Part shown: positions 3,507 to 35,747 of the stretch, one piece after another
Numbering within the stretch: position 1 is the stretch's first letter
Layout of the letters: every line of letters starts with the position of its first letter
IMG/VR virus record: IMGVR_UViG_3300027833_000012
Location: 1-48,256 of that record
Length of the DNA: 48,256 nucleotides
Source: a virus
Lineage: Duplodnaviria; Heunggongvirae; Uroviricota; Caudoviricetes
Direction: 5' to 3' (one strand)
Made by a program: the position numbers and the translations under genes
The notes under the pieces: generated by a model
The model's database searches: none
Seen by the model: the letters and a program-made list of their open reading frames with translations, nothing else
What the model was told of the DNA's origin: nothing

Positions 3507-3530
3507 CATCTTTTATTTCAATTTTACAAA

Positions 3531-6655: not shown

Positions 6656-6744
6656 ATATTATAACTATTTGTAATATCTTATAGTCAAATATACGCATTA
6701 ATTTAAATAAAATAAAGTATTTAACTTATTTTATTCTTGATAAT

Positions 6745-18107: not shown

Positions 18108-18134
18108 AAAAAAAACCATAACTTTCGTTATGGC
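18108..18134 (-). terminator. terminator closing tRNA operon 1
   Basis: CCATAAC-GAAA-GTTATGG hairpin plus T-run on the minus strand. Confidence 0.8.
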
Positions 18135-18139
18135 TTGTG

Positions 18140-18250
18140 TGGGGTGTGAGGGAATCGAACCACTCGTTTGTCAATTTTACAGATTGTTTTTTTTATGTTT
18201 GCTGCAATTATTCTTTACAGAATAAGTTTTTCCAACATTTTAAACACCCC
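18140..18250 (-). ncRNA. tRNA-Tyr(GTA)-like RNA with CAGCAA-containing insertion
   Basis: Acceptor GGGGTGT/ACACCCC-A, T-loop GTTCGATT, anticodon hairpin CAAT-CTGTAAA-ATTG, extra TTATTCT/AGAATAA stem followed by TTGCAGCAA. Confidence 0.6.
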
Positions 18251-18259
18251 TTGTTATAG

Positions 18260-18330
18260 AGCACAATGTGAGAATCAAACTCCGTCTTCTACTTGGAAGG
18301 TAGACGCTTTATCATTAAGCTACATCATGC
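18260..18330 (-). tRNA. tRNA-Gly(TCC)
   Basis: Cloverleaf, loop CTTCCAA, U73; T-loop TTTGATT divergent. Confidence 0.8.
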
Positions 18331-18409
18331 ATTGGTCTTTATGTAGGTGGTACCACCTTGTAGAGCCATAAAGAAACTTAACCTACTTTATCATATTGAA
18401 TTAATAAAA

Positions 18410-18661
18410 TTATTTATTTCTAAATTCTAACTCTTTTTTAATTTTTTCATATACTTCACAAGATTTTCTGTATTCCTGGATAAAAAAACCTCTTTCACAC
18501 CCTTTTAAAGGTAAATGTAACATACTACTATCAGAGAAGTTAATATCCTTTAACTTCTCTGATTTTATTTTTTTTAATTGTGTTTTATTAAATGTTGAAA
18601 TATCATTTAACTCAAAAGCTTCTAATAAATCATCTAAACTCATTTTACTGTAATTATTCAT
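18410..18661 (-). CDS. hypothetical protein inside the tRNA array, with its own TAnnTTTG promoter
   Basis: 83-aa ORF; promoter at 18680-18687. Confidence 0.6.
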   Translation of the reverse strand: MNNYSKMSLDDLLEAFELNDISTFNKTQLKKIKSEKLKDINFSDSSMLHLPLKGCERGFFIQEYRKSCEVYEKIKKELEFRNK

Positions 18662-18717
18662 ATCTTTATGTTTTAATTACAAATATACAAATTAATTATC
18701 ATAATTACAAATTATTG

Positions 18718-18786
18718 AGCGAGAAATGGGACTCGAACCCACAACCTTCTGATTGGCCAGACGCTCTACCATTGAGCTATTCTCGC
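18718..18786 (-). pseudogene. tRNA-Gly(GCC)-like gene with a 3-nt deletion in the anticodon arm
   Basis: Near copy of 18973..19044, but the arm reads TCTG-GCCAA-TCAGA instead of TCTGG-TTNCCAA-TCAGA. Confidence 0.6.
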
Positions 18787-18835
18787 AATTTATAGTCTTT
18801 CCTATTGTCACCATTTGAAGGAGTGGGTTTCTCCT

Positions 18836-18912
18836 TGGAGCACACAGACGGGTTCGAACCGACAACCTCCGCATTACAAGTGCGGGACTACTTCCACATG
18901 AGCTTTGTGTGC
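18836..18912 (-). tRNA. tRNA-Thr(TGT), CCA encoded
   Basis: CCGCA-CTTGTAA-TGCGG arm, GCACACA/TGTGTGC acceptor. Confidence 0.85.
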
Positions 18913-18972
18913 ATTTGTATGTCTTTACCTCAGTAACATACGTGAAAGATTTAATACTTCTTAACTACTCTG

Positions 18973-19044
18973 AGCGAGAAAGGAATTTCGAAATCCCGAC
19001 CTTCTGATTGGTAACCAGACGCTCTGCCTCTGAGCTATTCTCGC
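18973..19044 (-). tRNA. tRNA-Gly(ACC), A34 anticodon
   Basis: Gly-type body GCGAGAATAGCTCAG...TTCTCGC-U73; loop TTACCAA. Confidence 0.75.
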
Positions 19045-19094
19045 ATTTCTAATTCTACGCTCGTCCAAAGGAGTCTATGAATTAGTAACAGTCT

Positions 19095-19730
19095 TCACTC
19101 CTTTTTCATTTTTCGACCCAATCTCCAGCCTTCTGGAATTAAATCGCCTTTATTTATTTTCTTACTTTCAACTTCATTGGTAATCCAACACTTACCGAAT
19201 TGAGAATTATTTGACCCAACATTTTTAGACTTCCTCATCTTCTTTTTAGTTTCCTCACTATGTAATTTACCTTTAAATGTTGCTAATCTACCTTTTAAAG
19301 CTTTTTTAACTTTTTCTTTATATTTTGGGTCTTTATGCAAATTTTTAGTTATTTCACTTTTAATTTTCCTACCTTCATCACTTTTCCAAAATATATTACC
19401 AGCTTCAGAACATTTTTTCTGATGTTCTTCATCCCTAAAACCACCTTGACCACCTACTCTTAGATTCATACAGTCAACCTTTGCAATCTCGTTAAGATTA
19501 ACTATTTCTTCTTCTCTAGATTTTAAAATTTCTCTAGTTTCACAATACTCAAGTATTTCACTAATGAAATTATCTTTTCCATGTTTTCTAATAGCTAATT
19601 TAATTCTATTTCCACTACCTAAATAACCATCATCTAAGTTATCTGTACTATGCATCCCTATATAATATTTACCACTTAATACGTTTGTGGTTTTATATAT
19701 GAAGTGATACTTTTTTTCTTTTCTTGCCAT
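19095..19730 (-). mobile_element. free-standing Seg-like GIY-YIG homing endonuclease with NUMOD3-like motif, inserted in the tRNA array
   Basis: FIYKTTN...YYIGMH...YLGSG...AIRKHGKDNF..EILE; HSEETKKKMRKSK...NSQFG. Confidence 0.88.
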
Positions 19731-19789
19731 ATCTATCTTTTACAATAAATATGCAGAAAAACGTTAAAAGTACAAAAACGTGTCTAAAG

Positions 19790-19871
19790 TGGGCCCAGAG
19801 GGATTCGAACCCCCAATGTCTTTCGACCACAGATTTACAATCTGCTGAGCGACCAGTTGCTCAATGAACCC
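19790..19871 (-). tRNA. tRNA-Tyr(GTA)
   Basis: GCAGA-TTGTAAA-TCTGT arm, class II variable arm. Confidence 0.9.
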
Positions 19872-19882
19872 ATTTAATATTG

Positions 19883-19954
19883 AGCTGATATCCAAAATCG
19901 AATTGGAATTTCTACCATACCAAGGTAGCGTAATAGCCGTTATACTATACCAGC
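19883..19954 (-). tRNA. tRNA-Thr(GGT)
   Basis: CTACC-TTGGTAT-GGTAG arm. Confidence 0.85.
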
Positions 19955-19959
19955 ATTTG

Positions 19960-20030
19960 TACCCCCTAACGGTATTGAACCGATTTCCCCTATTTAAAAG
20001 ATAGGTGCTTCACCTTAAAGCTTAGAAGGC
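19960..20030 (-). tRNA. tRNA-Lys(TTT)
   Basis: CCTAT-CTTTTAA-ATAGG arm (U31-A39). Confidence 0.88.
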
Positions 20031-20036
20031 GTATTG

Positions 20037-20124
20037 TCCGAGAGGTGGGACTCGAACCCACGGTGGAGTCATTAACTCGTCTGGTTAAAAGCCAGGACCG
20101 TTCGCCAACTACGGATACTCTCGG
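20037..20124 (-). tRNA. tRNA-Lys(TTT) with long variable arm
   Basis: CTGG-CTTTTAA-CCAG arm followed by a GAGT-TAATG-ACTC variable hairpin; 88 nt. Confidence 0.78.
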
Positions 20125-20130
20125 ATATTG

Positions 20131-20212
20131 TGGGTCCAGAGGGATTCGAACCCCCAACGCCTTTCGGCCACAAATTTACAGTCTGCTGAGCGACCAGTTG
20201 CTCAATGAACCC
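20131..20212 (-). tRNA. tRNA-Tyr(GTA)
   Basis: Loop CTGTAAA; paralogue of 19790..19871. Confidence 0.9.
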
Positions 20213-20233
20213 ATTTATTTCACAAATTATTTG

Positions 20234-20304
20234 TCGATAGACCAGGAGTTAAACCTGGACCTACACCCCCAATGGATGTCGCACTGTCATTATACTATCT
20301 ATCG
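20234..20304 (-). tRNA. tRNA-like gene, undetermined (Pro-like C1-G72/A73; loop CATTGGG)
   Basis: Acceptor, D and T stems pair; A33 and T-loop TTTAACT are non-canonical. Confidence 0.5.
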
Positions 20305-20309
20305 AATTG

Positions 20310-20380
20310 TTACCCTCACGAGATTCGAACTCATACAACAAAAGTCAAAGTTTTGTATGCTACCATTACATCAGAGGGCA
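20310..20380 (-). tRNA. tRNA-Gln(TTG)
   Basis: CAAAA-CTTTGAC-TTTTG arm, U1-A72. Confidence 0.88.
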
Positions 20381-20386
20381 AAATAG

Positions 20387-20486
20387 AGTAGAAAGGGGGA
20401 TTCGAACCCGTAGTTATATTGAGTACTCTTTAACTACACCCACTTGGAACCTCGATGTTCCCGTGCTATCATTACACTATTTCTAC
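20387..20486 (-). tRNA. tRNA-like gene, undetermined (6-nt loop ATCGAG, very long variable arm)
   Basis: GTAGAAA/TTTCTAC acceptor, GGAAC/GTTCC stem, GTAGTTA/TAACTAC variable hairpin, GGTTCGAATCC T-arm. Confidence 0.5.
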
Positions 20487-20491
20487 ATTTG

Positions 20492-20561
20492 TCTAATGGG
20501 ACAGATTCGAACTGTCGTACTTCAGATACCAAATCTGACATGACCCTGGCTTCGCCACTAG
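20492..20561 (-). tRNA. tRNA-Pro(TGG), divergent D-arm
   Basis: TCAGA-TTTGGTA-TCTGA arm, C1-G72, A73. Confidence 0.72.
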
Positions 20562-20620
20562 ATAATTTTAATTCTACGCTTAAACTTCAAGATTCCTATG
20601 AATTAATAACAGTCTACTAG

Positions 20621-20695
20621 TCGAATAGAGAGGACTCGAACCTCCATGATGTCCTAGTCCCAAACTAGGCGACTTACCAATTAGTCCACTACTCG
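20621..20695 (-). tRNA. tRNA-Pro(TGG)
   Basis: CCTAG-TTTGGGA-CTAGG arm, C1-G72, A73. Confidence 0.9.
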
Positions 20696-20704
20696 AATTA
20701 TTTG

Positions 20705-20800
20705 TCGGGGGTATGGGATTCGAACCCATGGCAAATACGAACAGCGTACCCGCACTGGTTTCCAAGACCAGCCACTTCAACCTTACTCGTGCAACCCCCG
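20705..20800 (-). tRNA. tRNA-Pro(TGG) with long variable arm
   Basis: CTGGT-CTTGGAA-ACCAG arm, C1-G72/A73, ~25-nt variable hairpin GCGGGTACG...CGTATTTGC. Confidence 0.7.
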
Positions 20801-20890
20801 ATAATTACACTTCCACGTCATTGGTATAGTGCGAACCCAATTGTTATTTTATTATTCCAATATGTCAATGAACTACTTATTATTAAACGC

Positions 20891-20926
20891 AAAAAACCCA
20901 GTTAAAATTTTTATCTTAACTGGGCT
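20891..20926 (-). terminator. attenuator terminator of tRNA operon 1
   Basis: GCCCAGTTAA...TTAACTGGGT plus T-run; leader segment GACTGGGT (20998-21005) can pair with its 5' arm. Confidence 0.85.
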
Positions 20927-20958
20927 TCTTTATCGTATTTTTTTTTGGTTTAAATGAA

Positions 20959-21066
20959 TTAACCAATTAATTCATCACTTCCTTTTTTATACAACTCACC
21001 CAGTCTGCTCGGCTTTTGGCCTTGCGGATACTGTTTCCCTTGATATGTCGTTGTATAATTTTTCAT
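20959..21066 (-). CDS. leader peptide 1, MKNYTTTYQGKQYPQGQKPSRLGELYKKGSDELIG (35 aa)
   Basis: Lies between promoter 21112 and terminator 20891; codons 2-19 are 17/18 K/Y/T/Q/G/P, the tRNA species found downstream. Confidence 0.85.
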   Translation of the reverse strand: MKNYTTTYQGKQYPQGQKPSRLGELYKKGSDELIG

Positions 21067-21111
21067 CTTAATTTTTCTTTATGGGTTTATACCCTTTGTT
21101 AATATATATGA

Positions 21112-21119
21112 CAAAGATA
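21112..21119 (-). promoter_or_regulatory. TATCTTTG promoter of tRNA operon 1, with upstream TTGACAAA
   Basis: About 60 nt near-identical to the promoter at 35699. Confidence 0.82.
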
Positions 21120-21206
21120 CTAAAAGTTATCTAATTTGTCAAGTTTTTTTTAATTTATTTTTTAATTTATTTATAATTCACTGACTATCAGTTTATTATA
21201 TCTTTG

Positions 21207-21280
21207 TAGCGAGAGTCGGATTCGAACCGACGACCTCCAGATTATGAGCCTGGCGAGCTGACCTACTGCTCTATCTCGCA
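21207..21280 (-). tRNA. tRNA-Met(CAT), initiator-like
   Basis: Unpaired 1:72, fMet-type D-arm TAGAGCAG..GG..AGCTCG, loop CTCATAA. Confidence 0.85.
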
Positions 21281-21286
21281 ATTTAG

Positions 21287-21359
21287 TAGCGGGGGTAGGA
21301 TTCGAACCTACGACCTCCAGATTATGAGCCTGGCGAGCTAACCACTGCTCTACCCCGCA
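21287..21359 (-). tRNA. tRNA-Met(CAT), initiator-like
   Basis: Paralogue of 21207..21280. Confidence 0.85.
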
Positions 21360-21365
21360 ATTTTG

Positions 21366-21539
21366 TTGCCACGATGGGAATCGAACCCACTGCCTCTTCC
21401 TCCAACGGAAGCGAGCTTTGTATTTTTAAAGTTAGCTAAATTCAATTTAGTGATTTGCAACTCACCTCGTTTAAAAACTAACAGTTACTGAATACTTTGC
21501 AATTATATTCAGAGAAATACCCCAATGCTCCACATGACG
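21366..21539 (-). ncRNA. tRNA-Pro-like RNA with a ~110-nt structured insertion in the D-loop
   Basis: CGTCATG/CGTGGCA acceptor, GAGC...GCTC D-stem enclosing the insertion, CTTCC-GTTGGA-GGAAG arm, GTGGG-TTCGATT-CCCAT T-arm. Confidence 0.6.
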
Positions 21540-21550
21540 AATTTATTTAG

Positions 21551-21626
21551 CAGTAATAATCAGACTCGAACTGATACCTTGACAACCCATGTCGCCCTAT
21601 GCTATGACACACAACACCCTATTACT
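21551..21626 (-). tRNA. tRNA-like gene, undetermined (loop CATGGG)
   Basis: AGTAATA/TATTACT acceptor and canonical T-arm; anticodon loop not 7 nt. Confidence 0.5.
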
Positions 21627-21739
21627 AGTTTAGACAGCGGAGGAACATTTTAATTAAAGACTCCGATAGTTCTTTGTTTGTCTCTTATCTTTAATGTAGG
21701 GTCCGAGGACCATCGACTAACATTTAAGACGTATTCTTA

Positions 21740-21810
21740 GTAGAGTATACGGATTTGATACCATATTTCCAACTTTAATAGGTTGGCGACTTACTTAGTC
21801 GAGTACTCTA
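21740..21810 (-). tRNA. tRNA-like gene, undetermined (8-nt loop CTATTAAA)
   Basis: TAGAGTA/TACTCTA acceptor, GACT/AGTC D-stem, CCAAC/GTTGG stem, degenerate T-loop. Confidence 0.45.
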
Positions 21811-21814
21811 TTTC

Positions 21815-22600
21815 TTAGCTTGAGTGTTAAGCTTTGATGTTACCATTTTTAACTGTTTCCAGTCTATCACACACCTTCAATTTCTATCTGGTAGATAACA
21901 TTAAGTTGACCTCAGAGTGGTCATTACTCTTTTACATATCCTTATATAAACACTTTCGACACCCAGTCTCCTTGCGAGAGTTAAAAGGGGCTAACCTTCT
22001 ACTTATGACATCTAATTGTTGTTTTAACTTCAACCTTGAGAGTATCCATTATCTATATATTACAACAGAATAACTTAATTTTCAAGATATGTCTATCAGA
22101 ACTTTTTCTTACCAATGTTAATTTTTTAAACAAAATTTTATCTTAATAAGTTCCCTCACAGTTCAGAGTGTGTCTGATAGTTGACATTCGTGCTACCTTT
22201 TGAGTAGTTTAGAATACGACACTCCGATGTAATGTTTTACCATCACGTCAATTAAATTACTTCAAACATACGTGAGCCCTACCGAAGTAGGTAACCCACA
22301 GTTATCCCATAACCTTTCATGATGATTTCAGCTTAATATTTTTTAAATCTTCAGCCGAAATCTAACTACTTATTTATTGATTATTTCTAATCTCAAACCT
22401 CTGAGTTAAAGGTTAAGTGACTCCTAACAGTGTTATCTCGTCACCCATCGTAGCTTGCTTACCTGGATTATAAGCTCCCTCCGAAGAGTTAGCCTTATAA
22501 CGCAATAACACATCCACACTAAGCTTCACGTATTATCACTTTATCCCATCACTGGTTTATCCTTTTGTTACCCGAAGGTAACTGGAGCATAAGCACCCCA
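21815..22600 (-). ncRNA. large (~790 nt) structured non-coding RNA
   Basis: No minus-strand ORF in the ORF track, higher GC than flanks, UUCG and GNRA hairpins, 5'/3' long-range pairing, tandem promoters upstream. Confidence 0.7.
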
Positions 22601-22638
22601 ATATTTTCAATATTTTAATGAACTTTTTATTTCTCTTA

Positions 22639-22731
22639 CAAAGATACTAATTTTTTTATTAGTATGCAAGTTTTTTTTAAACTTTTTTTTTGTAATTTAA
22701 ATAACCTTTTTTTATTTCTTTTACAAAGATA
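22639..22731 (-). promoter_or_regulatory. tandem TATCTTTG promoters (22639-22646 and 22724-22731) for the ncRNA/tRNA-Met unit
   Basis: Two -7 boxes with upstream TTGCAT/TTGACA; boxA-like AGTTCATTAAAATATTG follows. Confidence 0.75.
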
Positions 22732-22771
22732 CTAAACTTTATCCGTTTTGTCAAGTTTTTTTTAAACTTTT

Positions 22772-23485
22772 TTACAAAATATTTTTAATATCCATTAATA
22801 TACCTCTTAATTCCCTTATTTTATCGATGTTTAAGGTATCTCTAAAGGCGTGTAATTCTTTAAACATCAAGTTATTATCTTCATCAAATAACTTTTTCCA
22901 ATCATTATAGACTCCTTGTAGTTCTGGTTTTTCTTTAACTAACCTTTCAAATCCTGGTACGTTAATTTCACCACCTCTAAATATTTCAGAGTTTTGAATT
23001 TTACTTTGGTCAATATTACCTTGACTATCCATAATATTTTTACTATCCATGAAAGCTTGTTCAACTTCTGATGGACTTAAGTTTGGGTCCATTAGGATTT
23101 CTTCTTGAAATTTGTTTAGAACTGGAGTTAGAGCTGAGTCACCTAGTACTGGTTTTATCAATTCTTCAAACGATTCTAATTTCTTATTAACTAGTTTTCT
23201 TTTTTTAATGAGTATCATATCTTGAGTTGTCTTTGTTATGATATCATCTATATGTTTTGCTAGTTGGTTGTTATAAAAATTCTTATGCCATTCTCTAAAG
23301 TTTGGTCCTAATTCATCTGATTTTTCATTCCAATCAAATTTATTAGTATAATTATCATATTCATCCAATGTACTCTTAATTTCATCTGGTAACTTTGTGA
23401 AATCAAATAAAGGTGCGTTATCATCTTCATTTAGTTTAATTCCAGAAAGTTTTTTAAACTCTCTTAATAATTTTCTCTTATCCAT
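22772..23485 (-). CDS. hypothetical protein with LLRE/LNE N-terminus (putative virion internal protein)
   Basis: MDKRKLLREFKKLSGIKLNED. Confidence 0.65.
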   Translation of the reverse strand: MDKRKLLREFKKLSGIKLNEDDNAPLFDFTKLPDEIKSTLDEYDNYTNKFDWNEKSDELGPNFREWHKNFYNNQLAKHIDDIITKTTQDMILIKKRKLVNKKLESFEELIKPVLGDSALTPVLNKFQEEILMDPNLSPSEVEQAFMDSKNIMDSQGNIDQSKIQNSEIFRGGEINVPGFERLVKEKPELQGVYNDWKKLFDEDNNLMFKELHAFRDTLNIDKIRELRGILMDIKNIL

Positions 23486-23487
23486 AT

Positions 23488-23829
23488 TTATTTTTTAAAA
23501 TACTTAAGTAATTTTTTAAAGAATGATATAATCTTATAGGTTTTTGGTTTATACTCTAAGTAATCTTCAGCTGTTAATTCATCTTCAATACCCTTAGTTA
23601 TTTTACTTATTAGTATTCTTTTTCTAATAGTAAATGGTTCAATCATTTGATATTGTTTATGTTCTTTAAAAACTAAGAGCCATTTATCAATTAAACCAAC
23701 TTCATCAATCTTAGATAATTTAAGCGTTTCACTTTCTCTATCTAGTAAAAGTAATAATGTTTTAACTTTTTTATCAAAATCTTTATCTTCGTTGAACTTA
23801 ACTTTTCTGTATTTACCTAAATCTAACAT
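23488..23829 (-). CDS. hypothetical protein
   Basis: 113-aa ORF behind the ATATTTAT motif. Confidence 0.6.
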   Translation of the reverse strand: MLDLGKYRKVKFNEDKDFDKKVKTLLLLLDRESETLKLSKIDEVGLIDKWLLVFKEHKQYQMIEPFTIRKRILISKITKGIEDELTAEDYLEYKPKTYKIISFFKKLLKYFKK

Positions 23830-23890
23830 ACTTTATAAAATTTAATTATTATTCTTTATACTAATAAATATATGGTATATAAGTATAACA

Positions 23891-24160
23891 TCATTTATTA
23901 GTGTCCTTATCTTTATTAGCCTTTATCATATCCCTAATTTTAGCAGCTTTTTCATATTCTTCAGACTTTATTGCGTTTGTAAGTTGGATATCTAAGGGGA
24001 TAGGTTTATCCCCAGGTGTGGATAACATGATAATCTTAACTAATTCCTTACCATCACTATTCCATTCTAATTTTTTGAACTCATATCCGTTCTCTTTAAA
24101 ATAACTTACTTTATCTGGTTCCCCTAAAGGTTCAAATAAATCATCGAAAAATTCATCCAT
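23891..24160 (-). CDS. small protein with C-terminal UVR (UvrB/UvrC) coiled-coil motif
   Basis: LDIQLTNAIKSEEYEKAAKIRDMIK. Confidence 0.75.
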   Translation of the reverse strand: MDEFFDDLFEPLGEPDKVSYFKENGYEFKKLEWNSDGKELVKIIMLSTPGDKPIPLDIQLTNAIKSEEYEKAAKIRDMIKANKDKDTNK

Positions 24161-24163
24161 AAT

Positions 24164-25764: not shown

Positions 25765-25822
25765 ATTATTTATTCTTTATACAAATATAACACTTATTTA
25801 TTTACTGTGCAACTATTTTAAC

Positions 25823-25850
25823 AAAAAAAGCTACCATATAGGTAGCTTTT
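25823..25850 (-). terminator. intrinsic terminator
   Basis: AAAAGCTACC-ATATA-GGTAGCTTTT. Confidence 0.75.
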
Positions 25851-25867
25851 TATTTAGTATTTAATTA

Positions 25868-26323: not shown

Positions 26324-26412
26324 ATATTGTTTTTAATTTTAATAAGTCTGCAACCTTATAACCTTTAATTATAAGGTCTAAGACTTATATTTTTTTTTTG
26401 TTTACACTCTTA

Positions 26413-28230: not shown

Positions 28231-28336
28231 AATACTTTTTTTATTATTTATTTATTGTTATTAATTAGATGACAAATATACGAACTTTTTATGGTTCTCA
28301 CAAATATTTGTCATCTTTTTTTATTTTTTTTTTACT

Positions 28337-29440: not shown

Positions 29441-29454
29441 AATTTATTTATTTT

Positions 29455-30147
29455 TTAGTTAATATTTTGTTTAACTCCGTTTACTACTTTTAATATTGAT
29501 TTTACAATTGTATCTCTGGCAATATCATTAGCCATTAATTTACATTTAATTTCAGTAATAATAGGTGAATATTTGTTGTCAATTTCTCTTAACTCACCCT
29601 CTTTAGACTTCTTTAATTGTTGTAAACTATATATTTGAGAATCGATATCTGATAATTCTTTAGTTAAGGCTTGCTCTTCTGAATTTTTAGAATTTAACGT
29701 TTCATTACTCTTCGATTGACCATTTTCGTCATAGTGTTTATGAACCTTAGTAATTTCATCTAAGTAATAGTCAGATTGCTTTAATAATGTAGTTTTTGTA
29801 ACACTAGCATCCATAGCCTTAGCCATTGTAAAAGCCATATCATACATAGCACTATTATCTATACCAGACTTAGATACCGCTTTATAATATTCGTAAAAAT
29901 CATAACCATCTAAATTCAGACCATCAAAACCTTGCTCATATAAACCCATAATCTTTTCTAAGTGTGGTTCACAAGATGGATTACTTGGTGTTACATCGAT
30001 TGTCTTTTTAGGGAAAGTAGTGGCTATTTTTGAATAATCCACATTTTCACCCATTGGTTCGAAGTTACTCTTAAAAGTCTTAGTTTCTTTAACTTCTTTT
30101 TTCTCACTTTCACCTTCGTTGGTGAAAAATAAATCTTTAAATCCCAT
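29455..30147 (-). CDS. hypothetical coiled-coil protein
   Basis: First gene of the operon after the promoter at 30173. Confidence 0.65.
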   Translation of the reverse strand: MGFKDLFFTNEGESEKKEVKETKTFKSNFEPMGENVDYSKIATTFPKKTIDVTPSNPSCEPHLEKIMGLYEQGFDGLNLDGYDFYEYYKAVSKSGIDNSAMYDMAFTMAKAMDASVTKTTLLKQSDYYLDEITKVHKHYDENGQSKSNETLNSKNSEEQALTKELSDIDSQIYSLQQLKKSKEGELREIDNKYSPIITEIKCKLMANDIARDTIVKSILKVVNGVKQNIN

Positions 30148-30224
30148 ATTTTATTTATTAAAATTATTTACACAAAGATATGTAAAATAAATCGTTCTAC
30201 CAAATATTATTTAATTTAATTAAT

Positions 30225-30342
30225 CAGAATGGTATATTACGTGCTCTACCCCTGAGCTACCGAGGCTACGAAGAACCCCAGGTTGGATTCGAACCAACGA
30301 CCCCGACCTTAAAAGAGTATAGTTAATTGCTGAAACCATTCT
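30225..30342 (-). ncRNA. circularly permuted tRNA-mimic (Y-RNA/YrlA-like topology) with CAGCAA motif
   Basis: AGAATGGT...ACCATTCT terminal stem; order is TTCAGCAA, Lys-like loop CTTTTAA, T-arm GTTGG-TTCGAAT-CCAAC, acceptor closed by a loop, D-arm AGCTCAGGGGTAGAGC. Confidence 0.7.
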
Positions 30343-30433
30343 TTATTTCCTTAAAAAAAACAACTTATTAACAAAACAAGTTTTTGAGTTGGAACAGACT
30401 TCCAACTCAATACATTGCAAATATACTACTAAT

Positions 30434-30817
30434 TTATTTATTTTGCAACTTTGTGACCAAGTTTATTTTACCATAATATTCTTTTCTTATTTCTTCATCA
30501 AACACTTCAAAAGAGTCAATATATATTGAATAGTTTTTTGGGTTATGGATATCATTAGTTAAAGGAACATAACACCCAGTTTTAGTACCTACTTTACAAT
30601 TTTGGGTACAACGTATTTTACAACGCCCCTCAATATCGTAAATGTAAATTTCCTTAACGTAAGGTCTAAATTCTTTATAATAATTAATATGTTCAGATAA
30701 AGTTCTAAACCTACAAGTACGTCTACTTGTTTTCCAATATTTAACCTCACCATTAAATAATTGAGGGTTAACAGTATCTTCATTTTGTTCTCTATCATCT
30801 ACAAAATATATTTCCAT
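30434..30817 (-). CDS. hypothetical protein
   Basis: 127-aa ORF. Confidence 0.6.
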   Translation of the reverse strand: MEIYFVDDREQNEDTVNPQLFNGEVKYWKTSRRTCRFRTLSEHINYYKEFRPYVKEIYIYDIEGRCKIRCTQNCKVGTKTGCYVPLTNDIHNPKNYSIYIDSFEVFDEEIRKEYYGKINLVTKLQNK

Positions 30818-30847
30818 AATTTATTTATTTTACAACTTAAATGTTAA

Positions 30848-31540
30848 TTAATCTCTAATATTATCCCACTTACGTAATAAAACACTTGGACTAAAGGCTT
30901 CTTCGCTATTAAGATTTTCAACTAATAATTTTGCAACTTTTTCGTATAATTGATGATATTTCTTTTCATAATCTAATACCTCTATATATTTTGAATCTAC
31001 ATAATCAGTTAACCAAACACCATTTTTTGATTTATAGAATTTACAACCATCTTCAATCATTTTAGTAGTATTAACCTCAAGTATGATAGGTTTACCTCTA
31101 CGACTACCAACATTTTTAGCTGTACCAATATCACTACTTAAATGTACATGTTGTCTATTCATCTTTTTTAATCCCATGGATTTTATATCCTTTAGATATT
31201 TTTCTACTGTACCATGGTATAAAATACTTGGTGGTACAAGTTCTTCCATATCTAAATCAACATTAATGGAATGACCTTGATTGGCTCTAATTGCTGATTT
31301 ATTGTTATTAAATGTAAATCTTTTTTTATCGTTTGATTCTACAATTTCTATTAATTCATCGTATAGTAGGGTTATACCCTTAATTTCATAAATGTTAATT
31401 AATAACTCATCTACATTCACCCAACCTTTATCATCCATTTTTAAATTAAGTATGTGGGGTTTATGTCTAAGTACTAGACTTAATAATTTACTAATTTTTT
31501 TCATAATATTATTTTTATTATTCATATTACAAATATACAT
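30848..31540 (-). CDS. kptA: RNA 2'-phosphotransferase (Tpt1/KptA); true start probably downstream of promoter 31530
   Basis: SKLLSLVLRH, NDKKRF, IRANQGHS, LYHGT, RQHVHLS, NGVWLT. Confidence 0.93.
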   Translation of the reverse strand: MYICNMNNKNNIMKKISKLLSLVLRHKPHILNLKMDDKGWVNVDELLINIYEIKGITLLYDELIEIVESNDKKRFTFNNNKSAIRANQGHSINVDLDMEELVPPSILYHGTVEKYLKDIKSMGLKKMNRQHVHLSSDIGTAKNVGSRRGKPIILEVNTTKMIEDGCKFYKSKNGVWLTDYVDSKYIEVLDYEKKYHQLYEKVAKLLVENLNSEEAFSPSVLLRKWDNIRD

Positions 31541-31578
31541 AAAAAAAATAAGACTAACAAATAAATGTTAATCTTATT
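31541..31578 (-). terminator. terminator closing tRNA operon 2
   Basis: AATAAGATTAACA...TGTTAGTCTTATT plus T-run. Confidence 0.75.
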
Positions 31579-31583
31579 TCTAG

Positions 31584-31655
31584 CCGTCCATCTCAGAATC
31601 GAACTGAGAGCAACCGAGAGACAGTCGGTCATGTTAGCCATTACACCAATGGACG
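31584..31655 (-). tRNA. tRNA-Asp(GTC)
   Basis: ACCGA-CTGTCTC-TCGGT arm, G73. Confidence 0.88.
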
Positions 31656-31660
31656 GAATA

Positions 31661-31731
31661 GGAATATTGTAGGATTCGAACCTACGACTGCGGCTCTTTG
31701 GCCACCGTGCTAACCTCTACACTAAATATTC
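31661..31731 (-). tRNA. tRNA-like gene, undetermined (6-nt loop CAAAGA)
   Basis: Intact acceptor, D and T arms; GTGGC/GCCGC stem. Confidence 0.5.
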
Positions 31732-31828
31732 TAACTATCTACAAATGACTGCCATCATCCTTCAATAGAACAGCCTTGATACTTCATTTCAGTTGGCAGA
31801 CTTACTCAAATTTATCTCACTGTTTTTG

Positions 31829-31901
31829 TGGAGCTACTCGGAATCGAACCGAGGACTGGGATTTGCAAAACCCCTATTTTAGCCAATTAAACTATAACCC
31901 C
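31829..31901 (-). tRNA. tRNA-Ala(TGC)
   Basis: Loop TTTGCAA, G3:U70. Confidence 0.9.
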
Positions 31902-32043
31902 ATTTTTGTTAGATTTCGTACCGTTATCACACTTCAGTACAAGTCGCTATCAATTTATCTAACACACTTCCAATGCTACCTATCTAGGTTATTTAAACAC
32001 CTTTGCGTCCCTAGCGGTATTGTGTGACACCGTTTCTTTATTG

Positions 32044-32116
32044 TATTCCAGAAGGGAATCGAACCCTCATTTTGCGATAGAAAGTCGCACGTCCTAAGCC
32101 ATTAGACGACTGGAAC
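32044..32116 (-). tRNA. tRNA-Glu(TTC)
   Basis: TGCGA-CTTTCTA-TCGCA arm. Confidence 0.88.
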
Positions 32117-32209
32117 ATTTGTAATTCTTCCTTTACTTATATTAACACTCCGATTGAACTTAATCTATCCCAGGCGTTACTTCCTGGCTCGTCTGGTATT
32201 AATATCTAG

Positions 32210-32283
32210 CGGATGTCACGGGGGTCGAACCCGCAATCTTCTGAGTGACAGTCAGATATGTTACCAATCAACACCTCACATCC
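32210..32283 (-). tRNA. tRNA-Asp(GTC)
   Basis: TCTGA-CTGTCAC-TCAGA arm, G73. Confidence 0.88.
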
Positions 32284-32354
32284 GTTTTATAGTCTTTCCT
32301 AACAGTCATACTCAATACATTGGCTGGTTGTAAATCAGCTATACAATGCGTTTG

Positions 32355-32428
32355 TAACCCTAGTGGGAGTCGAACCCACGACCTTATCCTTGAAAGGGAT
32401 ACGACTTTTCCTATTCGTCCATAGGGTC
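32355..32428 (-). tRNA. tRNA-Glu(TTC)
   Basis: TATCC-CTTTCAA-GGATA arm. Confidence 0.88.
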
Positions 32429-32553
32429 ATATAATAATAGGTGGAAAGAGTTTTATTTTGCTCTTATTACATGCACGACTTTGTGCAAAACTCACAAATA
32501 CCGATGAATTTAATCATTATCACTTAAAGCGTTTCGATATCTATTATTTATTG

Positions 32554-32629
32554 CCGTCCTAGAGGGGTTCGAACCCTCGTTTTTGAGCAGAGACAGTGCA
32601 AATCCCCTTCCAATGGGGCTCATAAGACG
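32554..32629 (-). tRNA. tRNA-Asp(GTC), weak anticodon stem
   Basis: GCA-CTGTCTC-TGC arm, G73. Confidence 0.75.
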
Positions 32630-32633
32630 TTAG

Positions 32634-32706
32634 TGAGGGCAACTGGTATCGAACCAGTATCTTTCGGGCTTCAACCGAACGCATAGACCATCTTTGCTAT
32701 ACCCCC
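32634..32706 (-). tRNA. tRNA-Phe(GAA)
   Basis: TTCGG-TTGAAGC-CCGAA arm, A73. Confidence 0.88.
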
Positions 32707-32719
32707 TTGTTTGTTATGT

Positions 32720-32727
32720 CAAAGATA
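32720..32727 (-). promoter_or_regulatory. internal TATCTTTG promoter-like site just upstream of tRNA-Phe
   Basis: TAnnTTTG match 14 nt before the tRNA. Confidence 0.55.
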
Positions 32728-32763
32728 CAAAAAATAAATTTAACTACCAAACTTTTTTTTTAA

Positions 32764-33081
32764 TTAATAACCATTTTCTTTTTTCCATTGGTCATGCATA
32801 AAAACCACTTTACCATATGCTGAACCTTTACCTTCAGTAATGTTTATGAAACCATTTTCTTCAGTTATTACTGATTCTTCTGGTCTAACTGAACCTCTAT
32901 ACTTCTTCCCATAACTACCAGTTAGTTCTTTTGTGGCTGGGTCAATATCACCCCAAGTACTATGACCATTACCTATCCATTCTATATAGTATTTCTTTCC
33001 AGTTTCTGGGAAATACATTATTTCTCTTCCAGTTTCATCTCTATTAACTAAGAAATCTTTAATCACATTTTTCATAACCAT
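32764..33081 (-). CDS. hypothetical protein, first gene after attenuator 2
   Basis: 105-aa ORF (WGDIDPATKELTGSYGKKYRGSV). Confidence 0.75.
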   Translation of the reverse strand: MVMKNVIKDFLVNRDETGREIMYFPETGKKYYIEWIGNGHSTWGDIDPATKELTGSYGKKYRGSVRPEESVITEENGFINITEGKGSAYGKVVFMHDQWKKENGY

Positions 33082-33094
33082 TTAAATTTAAAGC

Positions 33095-33124
33095 AAAAAA
33101 AAACTCGAATCTTTCGAATCGAGC
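33095..33124 (-). terminator. attenuator terminator of tRNA operon 2
   Basis: GCTCGATTC-GAAA-GATTCGAGT plus T9; leader segment GGTCGAGT (33165-33172) can pair with its 5' arm. Confidence 0.8.
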
Positions 33125-33149
33125 TTGTTATTTAGTTTAGTTGTTACAC

Positions 33150-33242
33150 TTAACTTTTGACACTACTCGACCTCCCCAGGCTAAAATCAGCCTCGGCATT
33201 TGCTTCAAACGCAAAATCAAATATGTAGTTAAATGTATTCAT
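33150..33242 (-). CDS. leader peptide 2, MNTFNYIFDFAFEANAEADFSLGRSSSVKS (30 aa)
   Basis: Lies between promoter 33303 and terminator 33095; codons 4-20 are 13/17 F/D/A/E, the tRNA species found downstream. Confidence 0.85.
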   Translation of the reverse strand: MNTFNYIFDFAFEANAEADFSLGRSSSVKS

Positions 33243-33302
33243 CTTTTTTATTTTTATAATTTTAATCAGAAGTATCTTTTACCTCTTTATTTTAAATATA
33301 CA

Positions 33303-33310
33303 CAAATATA
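33303..33310 (-). promoter_or_regulatory. TATATTTG promoter of tRNA operon 2
   Basis: -7 box with upstream TTGCAC. Confidence 0.78.
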
Positions 33311-33339
33311 CTAAAAGTTTATTTATTGTGCAAGTTTTT

Positions 33340-33546
33340 TTATTTATTTATTTCTGCAACGTCAGAAATTTTAACTTTAAATCTAATTCTTTCACCAGAA
33401 TCAGTCTTTTCCATAATTAATATTGTTGGTGATAAATCAACTGTGTCAAAAGTTTTGAACGTATTTAAAATAGTAAAATCACTATCTTTTAATGTCTCAC
33501 TTAATTTCTCAAATATTTCACTATAAATTTTATTATTATCCATCAT
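33340..33546 (-). CDS. hypothetical protein
   Basis: 68-aa ORF after the promoter at 33562. Confidence 0.6.
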   Translation of the reverse strand: MMDNNKIYSEIFEKLSETLKDSDFTILNTFKTFDTVDLSPTILIMEKTDSGERIRFKVKISDVAEINK

Positions 33547-33609
33547 TATTTCATTACACTACAAATATACTAACAATTATTCTTAATGTCAAGTATATTT
33601 GTATTTATT

Positions 33610-34215
33610 TTAATTATTTATATAAAATATCTTGAAATACTTCTTAATATCCAAGTATAGTTCAGAATCATTCTTTAATTCTATCTCATCTCCATTATCG
33701 AAGAATGTATCCCATTCTTCAATAGATTTATTTTTACAACCTATATTTAAAGTTCCATTTTCTTTTTTTTCAAATGACCAGTAGGCTATTTTTAAATCTC
33801 CATTTTGAACGAAACCTTTTAGAGATGTAATCAAATTGTTTCTTAAAGCTAAAGTTCCATTTTGCACGAAACCTTTTAAAGATGTGATTCGATTGTTTGC
33901 TAAATTTAGGGTACCATTCTGCACGAAACCATCTAAGGATGTGATTTGGTTTTTACTTAAAGATAAAAAACCATTTTGCACAAAGCCATTTAAGGATGTG
34001 ATTTGATTACCACTTAAAAATAAATATCCATTTTGTACGAATCCATCTAAGGATGTGATTTGGTTGTTTCTTAAATCTAAAATACCATTTTGTACGAACC
34101 CATCTAAGGATGTGATATTTTTATTATCTAAATCTAAAATACCATTTTGATGCATCTTTCCATCAACCATCTTAAATGGTAAATCATTCTCTCTAATATA
34201 GTCACAAATATTCAT
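33610..34215 (-). CDS. leucine-rich repeat protein, 6 x 19-aa repeats
   Basis: Same caps and repeat unit as 13590..15326. Confidence 0.9.
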   Translation of the reverse strand: MNICDYIRENDLPFKMVDGKMHQNGILDLDNKNITSLDGFVQNGILDLRNNQITSLDGFVQNGYLFLSGNQITSLNGFVQNGFLSLSKNQITSLDGFVQNGTLNLANNRITSLKGFVQNGTLALRNNLITSLKGFVQNGDLKIAYWSFEKKENGTLNIGCKNKSIEEWDTFFDNGDEIELKNDSELYLDIKKYFKIFYINN

Positions 34216-34276
34216 AATATATTTATTTTAATTATTGTTGATTACAAATATACGAATAATATTTCAAACTACCAAA

Positions 34277-34444
34277 CTATTCTGAAATTAATTCTAATAA
34301 CATAGATAATGGAAATAATATTACATTAATTAAAAATATTATAATTAACTTAAATTTATTTATATTATTTTTATAATATAATTTAATTATTGTATCACCC
34401 CATAATATACCTATTATTACATATATTACTATATATTCTAACAT
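34277..34444 (-). CDS. 55-aa two-TM membrane peptide (not in ORF track)
   Basis: Manual translation MLEYIVIYVIIGILWGDTIIKLYYKNNINKFKLIIIFLINVILFPLSMLLELISE; TAATTTTG at 34475. Confidence 0.5.
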   Translation of the reverse strand: MLEYIVIYVIIGILWGDTIIKLYYKNNINKFKLIIIFLINVILFPLSMLLELISE

Positions 34445-34540
34445 TATTATATATTATTTTTATATTTCGTTAAGACAAAATTACTGATATTATTTTTAAT
34501 ATGCAACATTTTTTATAATTTATCATAAATATACATATAT

Positions 34541-34570
34541 AAAAAAAGATACCCGTAATGAATATCTTTT
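34541..34570 (-). terminator. terminator closing tRNA operon 3
   Basis: AAAGATA...TATCTTT hairpin plus T-run. Confidence 0.65.
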
Positions 34571-34579
34571 AAACTTAGT

Positions 34580-34658
34580 TGGTACCCCTGGTGGGAATCG
34601 AACCCACGAAACAATGGTTTCTAAGACCATTCTGCATTCCAACGTGCAGCACAAGGGC
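34580..34658 (-). tRNA. tRNA-Leu(TAG), short variable region, CCA encoded
   Basis: ATGGT-CTTAGAA-ACCAT arm, A73. Confidence 0.85.
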
Positions 34659-34805
34659 TTATTTTATTCTTATTGTAATATAATAAACTTTATCAACAAA
34701 ATCATGTTCCCATCTAACTATGTTAACCCTTTTTTCCCATTCCTTGGTCCTAAATTTAGATTCTGACCAATTCTCTTCTTTTACAGTAAATACATGTGTT
34801 TTCAT
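34659..34805 (-). CDS. 48-aa hypothetical protein within the tRNA array (not in ORF track)
   Basis: Manual translation MKTHVFTVKEENWSESKFRTKEWEKRVNIVRWEHDFVDKVYYITIRIK exactly fills the spacer. Confidence 0.55.
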   Translation of the reverse strand: MKTHVFTVKEENWSESKFRTKEWEKRVNIVRWEHDFVDKVYYITIRIK

Positions 34806-34825
34806 TTCAAATTATTATATATTAG

Positions 34826-34901
34826 TACCCGAAGTGGGAATCGAACCCACGAAACGACAGAGTTTAAGTCTGTTGTGCATTCCAACGTGCACCATTCGGG
34901 C
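34826..34901 (-). tRNA. tRNA-Leu(TAA), short variable region
   Basis: ACAGA-CTTAAAC-TCTGT arm; identical to 35067..35142. Confidence 0.85.
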
Positions 34902-34906
34902 AATTG

Positions 34907-34977
34907 TAGCTTCAGATGGAATCGAACCATCGCCCCTTGCATGTAAAACAAGTACGCTCCCATTACGCCATGAAGCC
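34907..34977 (-). tRNA. tRNA-Val(TAC)
   Basis: CTTGT-TTTACAT-GCAAG arm. Confidence 0.88.
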
Positions 34978-34983
34978 AATTAG

Positions 34984-35057
34984 TACCCCTACCTGGAATC
35001 GAACCAGGGACTTATTGCTTGTAAAACAATCGCTCTGAACCACTGAGCTATAGAGGT
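34984..35057 (-). tRNA. tRNA-Val(TAC)
   Basis: ATTGT-TTTACAA-GCAAT arm. Confidence 0.88.
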
Positions 35058-35066
35058 TTATATTAG

Positions 35067-35142
35067 TACCCGAAGTGGGAATCGAACCCACGAAACGACA
35101 GAGTTTAAGTCTGTTGTGCATTCCAACGTGCACCATTCGGGC
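35067..35142 (-). tRNA. tRNA-Leu(TAA), short variable region
   Basis: Identical copy of 34826..34901. Confidence 0.85.
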
Positions 35143-35148
35143 AATTAA

Positions 35149-35409
35149 TTAAATGGTTTCCCACCTAATCATATCATCTGAGTTATCACCATCAAGAGCT
35201 TTTATCGCCTTTCTAATGTATCTCATAAAGATAGATGCTTTATCTTCTAATTCAAAGGTAGCATTACCTACTTCATTGTTATCTGTAACGTCAATAGGGA
35301 AGGTGTAAAGCGTCTTATCTACTAATACGGTATAATATAACCTACCATTCTTACAATAAGCTAATTTAGCTTTATTTCCCTTTACAATTTCAATCATTTT
35401 ATGTTTCAT
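35149..35409 (-). CDS. hypothetical protein within the attenuated tRNA array
   Basis: 86-aa ORF (YTFPIDV...GNATFELEDKASIFMRYIRKAI). Confidence 0.72.
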   Translation of the reverse strand: MKHKMIEIVKGNKAKLAYCKNGRLYYTVLVDKTLYTFPIDVTDNNEVGNATFELEDKASIFMRYIRKAIKALDGDNSDDMIRWETI

Positions 35410-35428
35410 AACTTATAATTTATATTAG

Positions 35429-35501
35429 AGTCCCTAATCAGATTCGAACTGATACCTTACGGGTTGCAACCGCACGCCTTTGCCATTTTGACTATAGGGA
35501 C
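35429..35501 (-). tRNA. tRNA-Cys(GCA)
   Basis: TGCGG-TTGCAAC-CCGTA arm, U73. Confidence 0.88.
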
Positions 35502-35535
35502 AAAAAAAAGTCCGATACTTTTATGTATCGGACTT
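35502..35535 (-). terminator. attenuator terminator of tRNA operon 3
   Basis: AAGTCCGATAC...GTATCGGACTT plus T8 abutting tRNA-Cys; leader segment CTATCGGGTT (35579-35588) can pair with its 5' arm. Confidence 0.88.
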
Positions 35536-35564
35536 ACTATATTATTTAAATGAAATCAACTCAC

Positions 35565-35648
35565 TCAATTAACAGCATAACCCGATAGGTCTACTAAGAC
35601 TAGTAAACATAAACAAAGGACTGATAATATGTTGTTAATTATATTCAT
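35565..35648 (-). CDS. leader peptide 3, MNIINNILSVLCLCLLVLVDLSGYAVN (27 aa)
   Basis: Lies between promoter 35699 and terminator 35502; codons 8-21 are 12/14 L/V/C, the tRNA species found downstream. Confidence 0.88.
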   Translation of the reverse strand: MNIINNILSVLCLCLLVLVDLSGYAVN

Positions 35649-35698
35649 TTTTAATTTAAATTTTGTGGCACTTTTTGTACCGTTATTAATATATATGA

Positions 35699-35706
35699 CA
35701 AAGATA
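35699..35706 (-). promoter_or_regulatory. TATCTTTG promoter of tRNA operon 3
   Basis: Near-identical context to the promoter at 21112. Confidence 0.82.
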
Positions 35707-35747
35707 CTAAAAGTTATTCAATTTGTCAAGTTTTTTTTTAATTTATT

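Follow-up and report, generated by a model that had tools for sequence, protein, structure and literature searches.

In the trp and his attenuators, the ribosome on a leader transcript senses the arrival of aminoacyl-tRNA, and in Escherichia coli the pheST attenuator, with its pheM leader peptide, controls phenylalanyl-tRNA synthetase by the supply of charged tRNA. T-box riboswitches are, to our knowledge, not known ahead of tRNA genes. The reason why phages carry tRNA genes of their own has been debated for about fifty years, the main ideas being codon compensation and escape from tRNA-cutting defences. Here, we explore the first 48,256 nucleotides (nt; 'the window') of the Caudoviricetes record IMGVR_UViG_3300027833_000012, a single contig of 187,484 bp, in which arrays of tRNA genes stand behind short open reading frames (ORFs) rich in codons that the downstream tRNAs read. 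The match of these leaders to their arrays is real: it is statistically overwhelming, conserved and backed by covariation. We consider it likely that the cassettes are ribosome-mediated leader-peptide transcription attenuators gating the phage's own tRNA genes. An earlier note on this DNA had proposed such control for three units and knew of no described case of attenuators gating phage tRNA genes; a literature search found none, and full-text literature yielded no description of leader-peptide control of tRNA genes.

Four tRNA cassettes and their leaders

The window has a G+C content of ~30%, carries nearly all its genes on the minus strand and holds 28 tRNA genes in three minus-strand arrays (ARAGORN and Rfam). 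Units 1-3 are given in window coordinates, and unit 4 and other sites outside the window in genome coordinates; L1-L4 denote the leader ORFs of units 1-4, with L1-L3 inside the window and L4 outside. Promoters are of the Bacteroidota type, with TTG at -33 and TAnnTTTG at -7. All four leader ORFs (27-35 codons) start 40-60 nt past a TAnnTTTG promoter, the sequence upstream of them being A-rich and unstructured, and in all four units an intrinsic terminator, a G+C-rich hairpin with a U-tract, lies between leader ORF and tRNA array. The layout first described for three units (promoter, ORF of 27-35 codons, terminator, tRNA array) was borne out in each, all on the minus strand and mapped below, with the qualification that unit 2 contains an extra ORF and a second promoter-like site. 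A genome-wide search for a promoter followed by a small ORF and a hairpin with a T-run returned the four leaders and only 2-3 other sites.

Unit 1 starts from a -33/-7 promoter of the Bacteroidota type at 21112..21142 (TTGACA, 17 nt, TATCTTTG) that is near-identical over about 50 nt to the promoters of units 3 and 4. Its leader ORF (20959..21066) encodes 35 amino acids (aa), and residues 2-19 read K N Y T T T Y Q G K Q Y P Q G Q K P, placing 17/18 among K, Y, T, Q, G and P, with rare synonymous codons (acg, ggg, cag, ccg, ggc) used in the run as well. Codons 21-24 contain the antiterminator strand (20997..21006, AGACTGGGTG), whose partner is the 5' arm of the attenuator terminator, a hairpin of GCCCAGTTAAG / TTTTAACTGGG with a U-tract at 20891..20930. 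The array that follows (18259..20800) supplies two tRNAs each for Pro, Gln, Tyr, Lys, Thr and Gly, in the order Pro x2, a weak tRNA, Gln x2, Tyr, Lys x2, Thr(ggt), Tyr, Gly(acc), Thr(tgt), an unassigned tRNA and Gly(tcc), and ends at a closing terminator (18113..18136).

In unit 2, a promoter at 33303..33336 (CTTG ... TATATTTG) precedes a 30-aa leader ORF (33150..33242) whose run has 13/17 residues in F, D, A and E, each of the four Ala codons appearing once. The antiterminator strand (33164..33173, AGGTCGAGTA) falls at codons 24-27, and the attenuator terminator (GCTCGATTC-GAAA-GATTCGAG plus U-tract) at 33094..33125. Between this attenuator and tRNA-Phe lies a passenger ORF of 105 aa with no Pfam family (32764..33081), and directly before tRNA-Phe a second promoter-like site read from the sequence (32715..32750; TTTG, 20 nt, TATCTTTG). 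The array (31583..32706) runs Phe, (Asp), Glu, Asp, Glu, Ala, an unassigned tRNA and Asp, giving Phe, Glu x2, Asp x2-3 and Ala, and is closed by an AT-rich hairpin with T8 at about 31541-31578.

Unit 3 has its promoter at 35699..35729 and a 27-aa leader ORF (35565..35648) with 12/14 run residues in L, V and C; its Leu codons, TTA and CTA/CTT, agree with the two Leu anticodons supplied (taa, tag). The antiterminator strand (35577..35588, CTATCGGGTTAT) occupies codons 21-24, and the attenuator terminator (35502..35535), an 11-bp stem with a U-tract, ends 1 nt from tRNA-Cys. Its array (34580..35501) consists of Cys, an 86-aa ORF, Leu(taa), Val x2, Leu(taa) and Leu(tag), followed by a weak hairpin with a T-run at about 34541-34570.

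The earlier note had also predicted, elsewhere in the genome, a leader rich in R, H, I, N, S and W ahead of the tRNAs missing from the window. Such a leader was found outside the window at genome 69869-69964: an ORF of 31 codons beginning MRTINIHMISSSNWRRNSSR (leader, MRTINIHMISSSNWRRNS), in which R, H, I, N, S and W make up 17 of the first 20 residues following Met. Counted over the run, 17/19 codons are for amino acids of its array. The cassette, at genome 69.8-70.0 kb, has the same promoter as units 1 and 3 and a terminator of ACCCGA/TCGGGT, with CGGGT copied at L4 codons 22-24. Its array (genome 67049-69487) contains His x2, Trp, Ser, Asn x2, Ile(gat), two CAU-anticodon tRNAs (Met/Ile2) and Arg x3. 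This inventory rests on relaxed tRNA detection, which adds two Ser(tga) and the two CAU-anticodon tRNAs and gives Ser(tga) x2, Ser(gga) and Ser(gct) as the Ser tRNAs.

The run counts given above for L1-L3 are recounts that reproduce the values first reported. Moreover, the codon sets are nearly mutually exclusive, as had been claimed, the leader-by-array matrix being almost diagonal (residues 2-21: L1 [17,0,0,3], L2 [2,13,0,5], L3 [0,1,12,7], L4 [1,1,0,17]). Measured against the amino-acid usage of the phage itself, L1 to L4 have binomial tails of 1e-6, 6e-5, 7e-6 and 3e-7. Among the 610 ATG ORFs of 22-60 aa in the whole genome, L1, L2 and L4 each rank alone as the most extreme for the amino acids of their array, and L3 is only tied second for its set because L/V-rich frames are common. 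In total, 19 amino acids are partitioned among the four leaders, with the Met tRNAs standing separately behind a GOLLD-like long non-coding region.

The match extends to individual codons, almost all run codons being readable by a cognate or wobble tRNA of their own array. Synonymous codons are sampled widely (4/4 Ala codons in L2, 4/4 Gly codons in L1 and 5/6 Ser codons in L4), many of them rare in this genome. For example, ATA and ATG in L4 fit the two CAU-anticodon tRNAs, and TCG/TCA fit Ser(tga).

A predicted RNA switch and its conservation

The evidence for a switch comes from predicted folds and covariation. A copy of the terminator 3' arm was confirmed inside each window ORF, at codons 21-27 (CTGGGT, TCGAG and TATCGG in units 1-3). 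Full leader transcripts fold to the terminator, and when the terminator 3' arm is left off, as mid-transcription, the 5' arm pairs with ORF codons about 20-27. This pairing forms the base of a long composite hairpin that includes the 3' end of the ORF and a hairpin over the stop codon. In constrained folds, a 28-nt ribosome footprint at codons 5-17 keeps the antiterminator and one at codon 20 loses it, suggesting that a stall within the run gives read-through and completed translation gives termination. The antiterminator elements of L1-L4 (-23.5, -13.8, -19.9 and -14.5 kcal/mol) are about equal to or more stable than the terminators (-18.8, -11.3, -16.4 and -15.4 kcal/mol), the competing element in L1 spanning 94 nt. 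Shuffle tests of the ORF against the 5' arm gave 0.009, 0.032, 0.10 and 0.053 for L1-L4, in each case at the same place in the ORF.

The trp/his/phe-type geometry originally proposed holds in that stalling spares the antiterminator in the folds; the arrangement is nevertheless simpler than that of trp, as the 1:2 pairing of the run with the antiterminator strand is clear in the L2 fold alone. The gap from stop codon to terminator measures 21-37 nt in this genome and 35 unique relatives, too long for a ribosome at the stop codon to occlude the terminator directly, and that mechanism was ruled out. RNA contigs from four public runs (three metatranscriptomes and one of unrecorded library type) gave few short fits over 20300-21400, including an identical 185-nt contig at 20687-20870 and another at 21012-21200; they carry no ends, strand or level, and DNA carry-over is possible.

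Conservation of the leaders, on which the first reading depended, is evident. Leaders of the L4 type occur on 46 metagenome contigs from lakes and seas, retrieved with a degenerate pattern for the first nine codons, and L1-L3 types are present in a 119-kb IMG/VR relative and other contigs. The L4 homologues have an ORF of 28-36 codons wherever the contig end permits (2-3 are cut short), and near-invariance extends over the first 18 peptide residues across the 46 contigs, well past the nine fixed by the pattern. A terminator follows the homologue on every contig with at least 150 nt past the stop, and almost all longer contigs have His, Trp, Ser, Ile, Met(cat), Asn and Arg tRNAs downstream, ARAGORN detecting no tRNA downstream of the leader on two of them (L021, L050). 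Furthermore, the codon at each position is nearly fixed in 32 unique L4 ORFs (AGA, ACA, ATA, CAT, TCG, TGG, AGA, CGY, AAT). Ser positions alternate between TCG and AGY, and the other positions hold one exact codon, suggesting selection on the translated frame and on particular tRNA species.

The pairing co-varies too. Across the L4 family, both terminator arms co-vary with the ORF strand of codons 20-25, the compensatory changes falling into at least three classes (GTCGGGT/ACCCGAC, GTCAGGT/ACCTGAC and GGTCAAGGT/GCCTTGACC), and the IMG/VR contig L016 displays the same covariation of ORF strand and terminator arms. In the 119-kb relative, homologues of L1, L2 and L3 stand before Pro/Gln/Tyr/Lys/Thr/Gly, Phe/Glu/Asp and Cys/Val/Leu arrays, respectively, with substitutions that preserve pairing; its L2 directly precedes tRNA-Phe. 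Additionally, a profile-free search with the L1 peptide added four more representatives, all ahead of Pro/Gln/Tyr arrays, one of which has a compensatory change from CTGGG/CCCAG to CGGGT/ACCCG.

TARA scaffold_2 (L071, 102.6 kb), whose Tpt1 is 88% identical to that of the phage, carries the reduced arrays Pro-Tyr-Gln and His-Ser-Ser. Its cassettes (3385-3793 and 6369-7095) have L1- and L4-type leaders with co-varying terminators; the Tpt1 neighbourhood there holds no tRNAs, the reduced cassettes lying elsewhere on the scaffold. The L4-type leader, ahead of His, Ser and Ser, retains none of the three Arg codons and has acquired additional Ser codons, and the L1-type leader has lost two of three Thr codons. 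L071 may represent a natural experiment in leader decay. The covariation of leader and array anticipated for relatives is found here for Arg, lost from leader and array alike, and fails for Lys and Gly, whose codons are kept in the absence of their tRNAs.

Other searches delimit the family. No IMG/VR relatives were found via the 530-aa ORF, Tpt1 or the PcfJ-like protein, and a Tpt1 homologue search returned mostly cellular Bacteroidota proteins together with L071. By blastn, the leader regions matched no cultured phage, and matches to the array 3 query were limited to cyanophage tRNA genes. The L4 pattern was absent from 185,579 species genomes and the L2 pattern from IMG/VR. Flavobacterium phage immuto, the closest cultured relative (baseplate protein, 27.5% identity), has only 3 tRNAs and was rejected as a model; no cultured carrier of the cassettes was found.

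Mechanism and rival explanations

On the attenuator reading, each of the four promoters would drive a short leader RNA, and a ribosome would translate the 27-35 codon ORF, of which the first roughly 20 codons are those read by the downstream tRNAs. ORF codons about 20-27, the rest of the ORF, the stop-codon hairpin and the terminator 5' arm would together make up a long antiterminator. Slow decoding of any tested codon, whether its cognate tRNA is scarce, uncharged or cleaved, would stall the ribosome within the run; the antiterminator would stay folded, no terminator would form, and RNA polymerase would continue into the tRNA array. With fast decoding, the ribosome would get to the stop codon and melt the antiterminator, allowing the 5' arm to pair with the 3' arm and stop transcription ahead of the tRNAs. 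Since the read-through products are the tested tRNAs, each cassette would close a negative-feedback loop around the supply of its own tRNAs.

Several observations weigh against this reading. An outer antiterminator helix of just 5-9 bp has to close an element of 60-94 nt, and the shuffle test for L3 is weak (0.10). The antiterminators of L1, L3 and L4 fold even without a ribosome, so that the OFF state would rest wholly on tight transcription-translation coupling, which is not established for these hosts. Some run codons have no cognate tRNA in their array, namely AAT in L1, ACA in L4 and the N/I/Y codons that start L2 and L3; conversely, Thr(ggt) of array 1 has no codon in L1. Unit 2 has an ORF and the second promoter-like site ahead of tRNA-Phe, and this site may partly uncouple array 2 from its attenuator. 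In L071, the L1-type leader retains Lys and Gly codons while only Pro, Tyr and Gln tRNAs follow, indicating that leader and array tend to move together, not strictly. In phage crAss001, 23 tRNAs follow one plain promoter with no leader cassette, which shows that the design is not universal. Finally, translation of the leader ORFs, the sign and size of the regulation and its physiological trigger are what we infer.

The ribosome-free folds also bear on how the idea was first worded, namely that replacement tRNAs are made only when host tRNAs are uncharged or destroyed. That 'only when' is not supported: since the L1, L3 and L4 antiterminators form without a ribosome in the modelled folds, these three leaders may be ON by default and be turned OFF by translation.

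What the attenuators would be selected for is less certain. Anticodon nucleases as the trigger are speculation; they would fit the neighbouring repair genes, but the sensor would read decoding speed alone and could not separate tRNA loss from amino-acid starvation. The arrays could replace host tRNAs lost to nucleases. A more ambitious proposal, which we regard as possible and distinctly tentative, is that the four cassettes form a codon-resolved monitor of host decoding (19 amino acids, one fixed codon per supplied tRNA species) selected for counter-defence: tRNAs cut by host anticodon nucleases or depletion systems would switch on only the matching array, the remaining damage being left to the neighbouring repair genes (Tpt1, RtcB-like, CCA-adding enzyme, Pth2). 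If true, this would be the first known inducible phage anti-defence response triggered by the damage itself.

The rival that survives best accepts real attenuators and has them report the general translation state (ribosome availability, coupling, amino-acid starvation), the codon match reflecting a need for phage-decodable codons late in infection. A leader ribosome does read aminoacyl-tRNA arrival and cannot tell tRNA loss from amino-acid starvation, and with three of four antiterminators folding ribosome-free, any translation block would turn all arrays on. However, a general sensor needs no partition, and the four codon sets are nearly non-overlapping, each that of its own array; position-specific conservation, with one codon per tRNA species, likewise points to specific sensing. 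We hold this explanation to be improbable.

Alternatively, the hairpins could be insulating terminators or elements for tRNA-precursor processing or stability, with the small ORFs acting otherwise (5' leader protection, or stall-triggered Rho or nuclease), by another mechanism or with the opposite sign. The short outer antiterminator helices are in keeping with this, as are the position of terminator 3, which abuts the RNase P site of tRNA-Cys, and the second promoter past the terminator in unit 2. A plain terminator, however, needs no upstream strand that co-varies with both of its arms, as the codon 20-25 strand does in many relatives; the antiterminator elements match the terminators in stability, and in this genome the cassette type is almost restricted to tRNA arrays. 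There is thus little room for such a function.

It is still harder to credit that the short ORFs are functional micropeptides or sequence-specific arrest peptides whose composition matches incidentally. The almost invariant first 18 residues of L4 on 46 contigs would suit a peptide function, and L3 resembles a hydrophobic helix, L/V-rich small ORFs not being rare. Yet four unrelated peptides each match their own array (tails 3e-7 to 6e-5), the variable C-terminal halves follow the RNA pairing with no peptide motif, and synonymous sites are fixed, which a peptide function would not demand. Chance, with small ORFs and hairpins of AT-rich spacers resembling attenuators, has nothing but the small size of the elements in its favour and is practically dismissed by the matrix, tail and outlier statistics, the genome-wide rarity of such cassettes, the discovery of unit 4 where one had been predicted, and conservation on dozens of contigs.

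Neighbouring elements and relation to known systems

Further features accompany the cassettes. A small conserved 5' hairpin begins each leader RNA, between promoter and start codon (examples GGGTataaACCC, GGTACaaaaaGTGCC and ACACTaaaaaAGTGT; window 21083-21096 and 35670-35686 (-), genome about 69985-70000 and contig L016 about 6020-6037). A promoter, a 22-codon ORF (MDDDSIADITADLRFDRAILLF) and a terminator also form a cassette distant from the tRNA arrays, at genome 165406-165474 (-). The motif AGTTCATTGACATATT occurs twice, at window 20859-20874 (-) just past terminator 1 and at genome about 69240-69255 (-) in array 4 before tRNA-Trp, and could be a secondary promoter or processing signal.

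Two ORFs split array 1: a GIY-YIG/NUMOD3 homing-endonuclease ORF (19095-19730, -) and an ORF of 83 aa. The relative L064 has another endonuclease-like ORF immediately past its L1 terminator. The 105-aa ORF of unit 2 is missing from the corresponding place in the 119-kb relative, and a 53% identical homologue likewise lies between tRNA genes on an unrelated phage contig of higher GC (L015:5995-6312), which has tRNAs and no leaders; judging from these sequences, it may belong to a small protein family that travels with tRNA arrays. In several relatives, a conserved ORF of 58-62 aa (…KLG.EK.K.F..DFDLIVDKYR.IA..TGY…) lies between the L4 terminator and the first tRNA (genome about 69620-69800 (-); L016:6225-6413; L071:6754-6930) and, sitting past that terminator, would also be under the attenuator.

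Some tRNAs are unusual. Array 4 contains tRNA-like genes missed or misread by standard ARAGORN (genome 67800-67990 and 68290-68420; L002:1810-1972 and 2296-2414); two have odd cores, with anticodon arms CAU and GAU, and another measures 118 nt with an insertion. In the window, one tRNA-Gly has the anticodon ACC (A34), and ARAGORN fails to read a seven-membered anticodon loop in two further tRNAs (18972-19044, 18717-18786 and 31661-31731, all (-)). Altered anticodon loops have been proposed as an evasion of anticodon nucleases (PMC10264068), and by analogy tRNA-Gly(ACC) and the two unreadable loops may be of this kind.

A pair of tRNA-Met genes (21206-21359) lies upstream of the unit 1 promoter and has no leader. 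Between this pair and tandem phage promoters (about 22726-22754 and 22640-22680) extends an ORF-free, highly structured region of 1.26 kb (21360-22625, -). It matches the GOLLD RNA model over its full length with 57.7 bits (E 5e-14), under the gathering score of 150, with the best match at 21817-22227 (-) and tRNA-like 3' modules at about 21550-21626 and 21365-21410. From this similarity, the region probably encodes a divergent giant RNA of the GOLLD type that shares its transcript with the Met tRNAs. Immediately past array 2, the phage encodes a Tpt1/KptA RNA 2'-phosphotransferase (30848-31540, -; Pfam E 2e-52) whose nearest cellular homologues are from Flavobacteriia and other Bacteroidota. 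Together with the Bacteroidota-type promoters, these homologues suggest that the host is probably a marine member of that phylum.

Among described systems, the phage leaders resemble trpL, hisL, pheL, leuL and thrL in their plan: regulatory codons are clustered in a short ORF, which in the phage is presumably translated too. As in those enterobacterial leaders, the terminator 5' arm can pair with an upstream strand instead, and the position of the ribosome would choose the fold. The ilvGMEDA and thr leaders come closest, one leader sensing several amino acids. In contrast to the enterobacterial leaders, however, the phage targets are tRNAs and not biosynthetic enzymes, and the product would feed straight back on the sensor. 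The setting differs too, being viral, with Bacteroidota-type promoters and four parallel cassettes that split 19 amino acids. The phage antiterminator also takes in the 3' half of the ORF itself and its stop codon, with a 1:2 hairpin only in L2. None of the Rfam leader families (Trp RF00513, His RF00514, Thr RF00506, Leu RF00512 and others) was found: matches in the window at the gathering threshold are to tRNAs only, and the unit 4 locus has no match to a leader family at E<=0.1.

Closest in target is pheST, where a leader-peptide attenuator likewise stands over a component of the decoding apparatus. Unlike pheST, which serves a synthetase, one amino acid and a cellular operon, the phage would gate tRNA genes and test several amino acids per leader. 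T-box riboswitches share a terminator/antiterminator switch tied to a specific tRNA state and control translation-related genes; unlike the phage units with their conserved ORF, they bind uncharged tRNA via a specifier codon and use no ribosome. The T-box model (RF00230) had no Rfam match in the window or the unit 4 locus.

Large tRNA arrays are also found in the clusters of T4-like phages, T5, mycobacteriophages and crAss001, the arrays described here lying beside RNA-repair genes such as Tpt1. Phage tRNA clusters have been discussed under codon-compensation and counter-defence hypotheses in accounts that do not mention attenuators, leaders or terminators (PMC10264068, PMC11555353). The proposed conditional control of the arrays, which those accounts do not describe, would set the present cassettes apart from the described clusters.

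Regulatory wiring tells the purpose of tRNA genes: if transcription of each array tracks the slowness of its own codons, the tRNAs would be a demand-driven supply and not a constitutive supplement. The family is common in marine and freshwater metagenomes, with one leader type on 46 contigs, and the system may consequently shape the infection dynamics of abundant Bacteroidota phages. Being short, modular and orthogonal, with four non-overlapping codon sets, the leaders moreover lend themselves to use as natural reporters of how fast chosen codons are decoded. If the attenuator reading is true, leader-peptide attenuation would reach beyond metabolic and synthetase genes to those for tRNAs, and beyond cells to viruses, with a sensor whose output is its own ligand. 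The mechanism itself would be classical leader-peptide attenuation; what is new is the tRNA-gene target, the closed feedback loop, the viral setting and the four-way split of the code.

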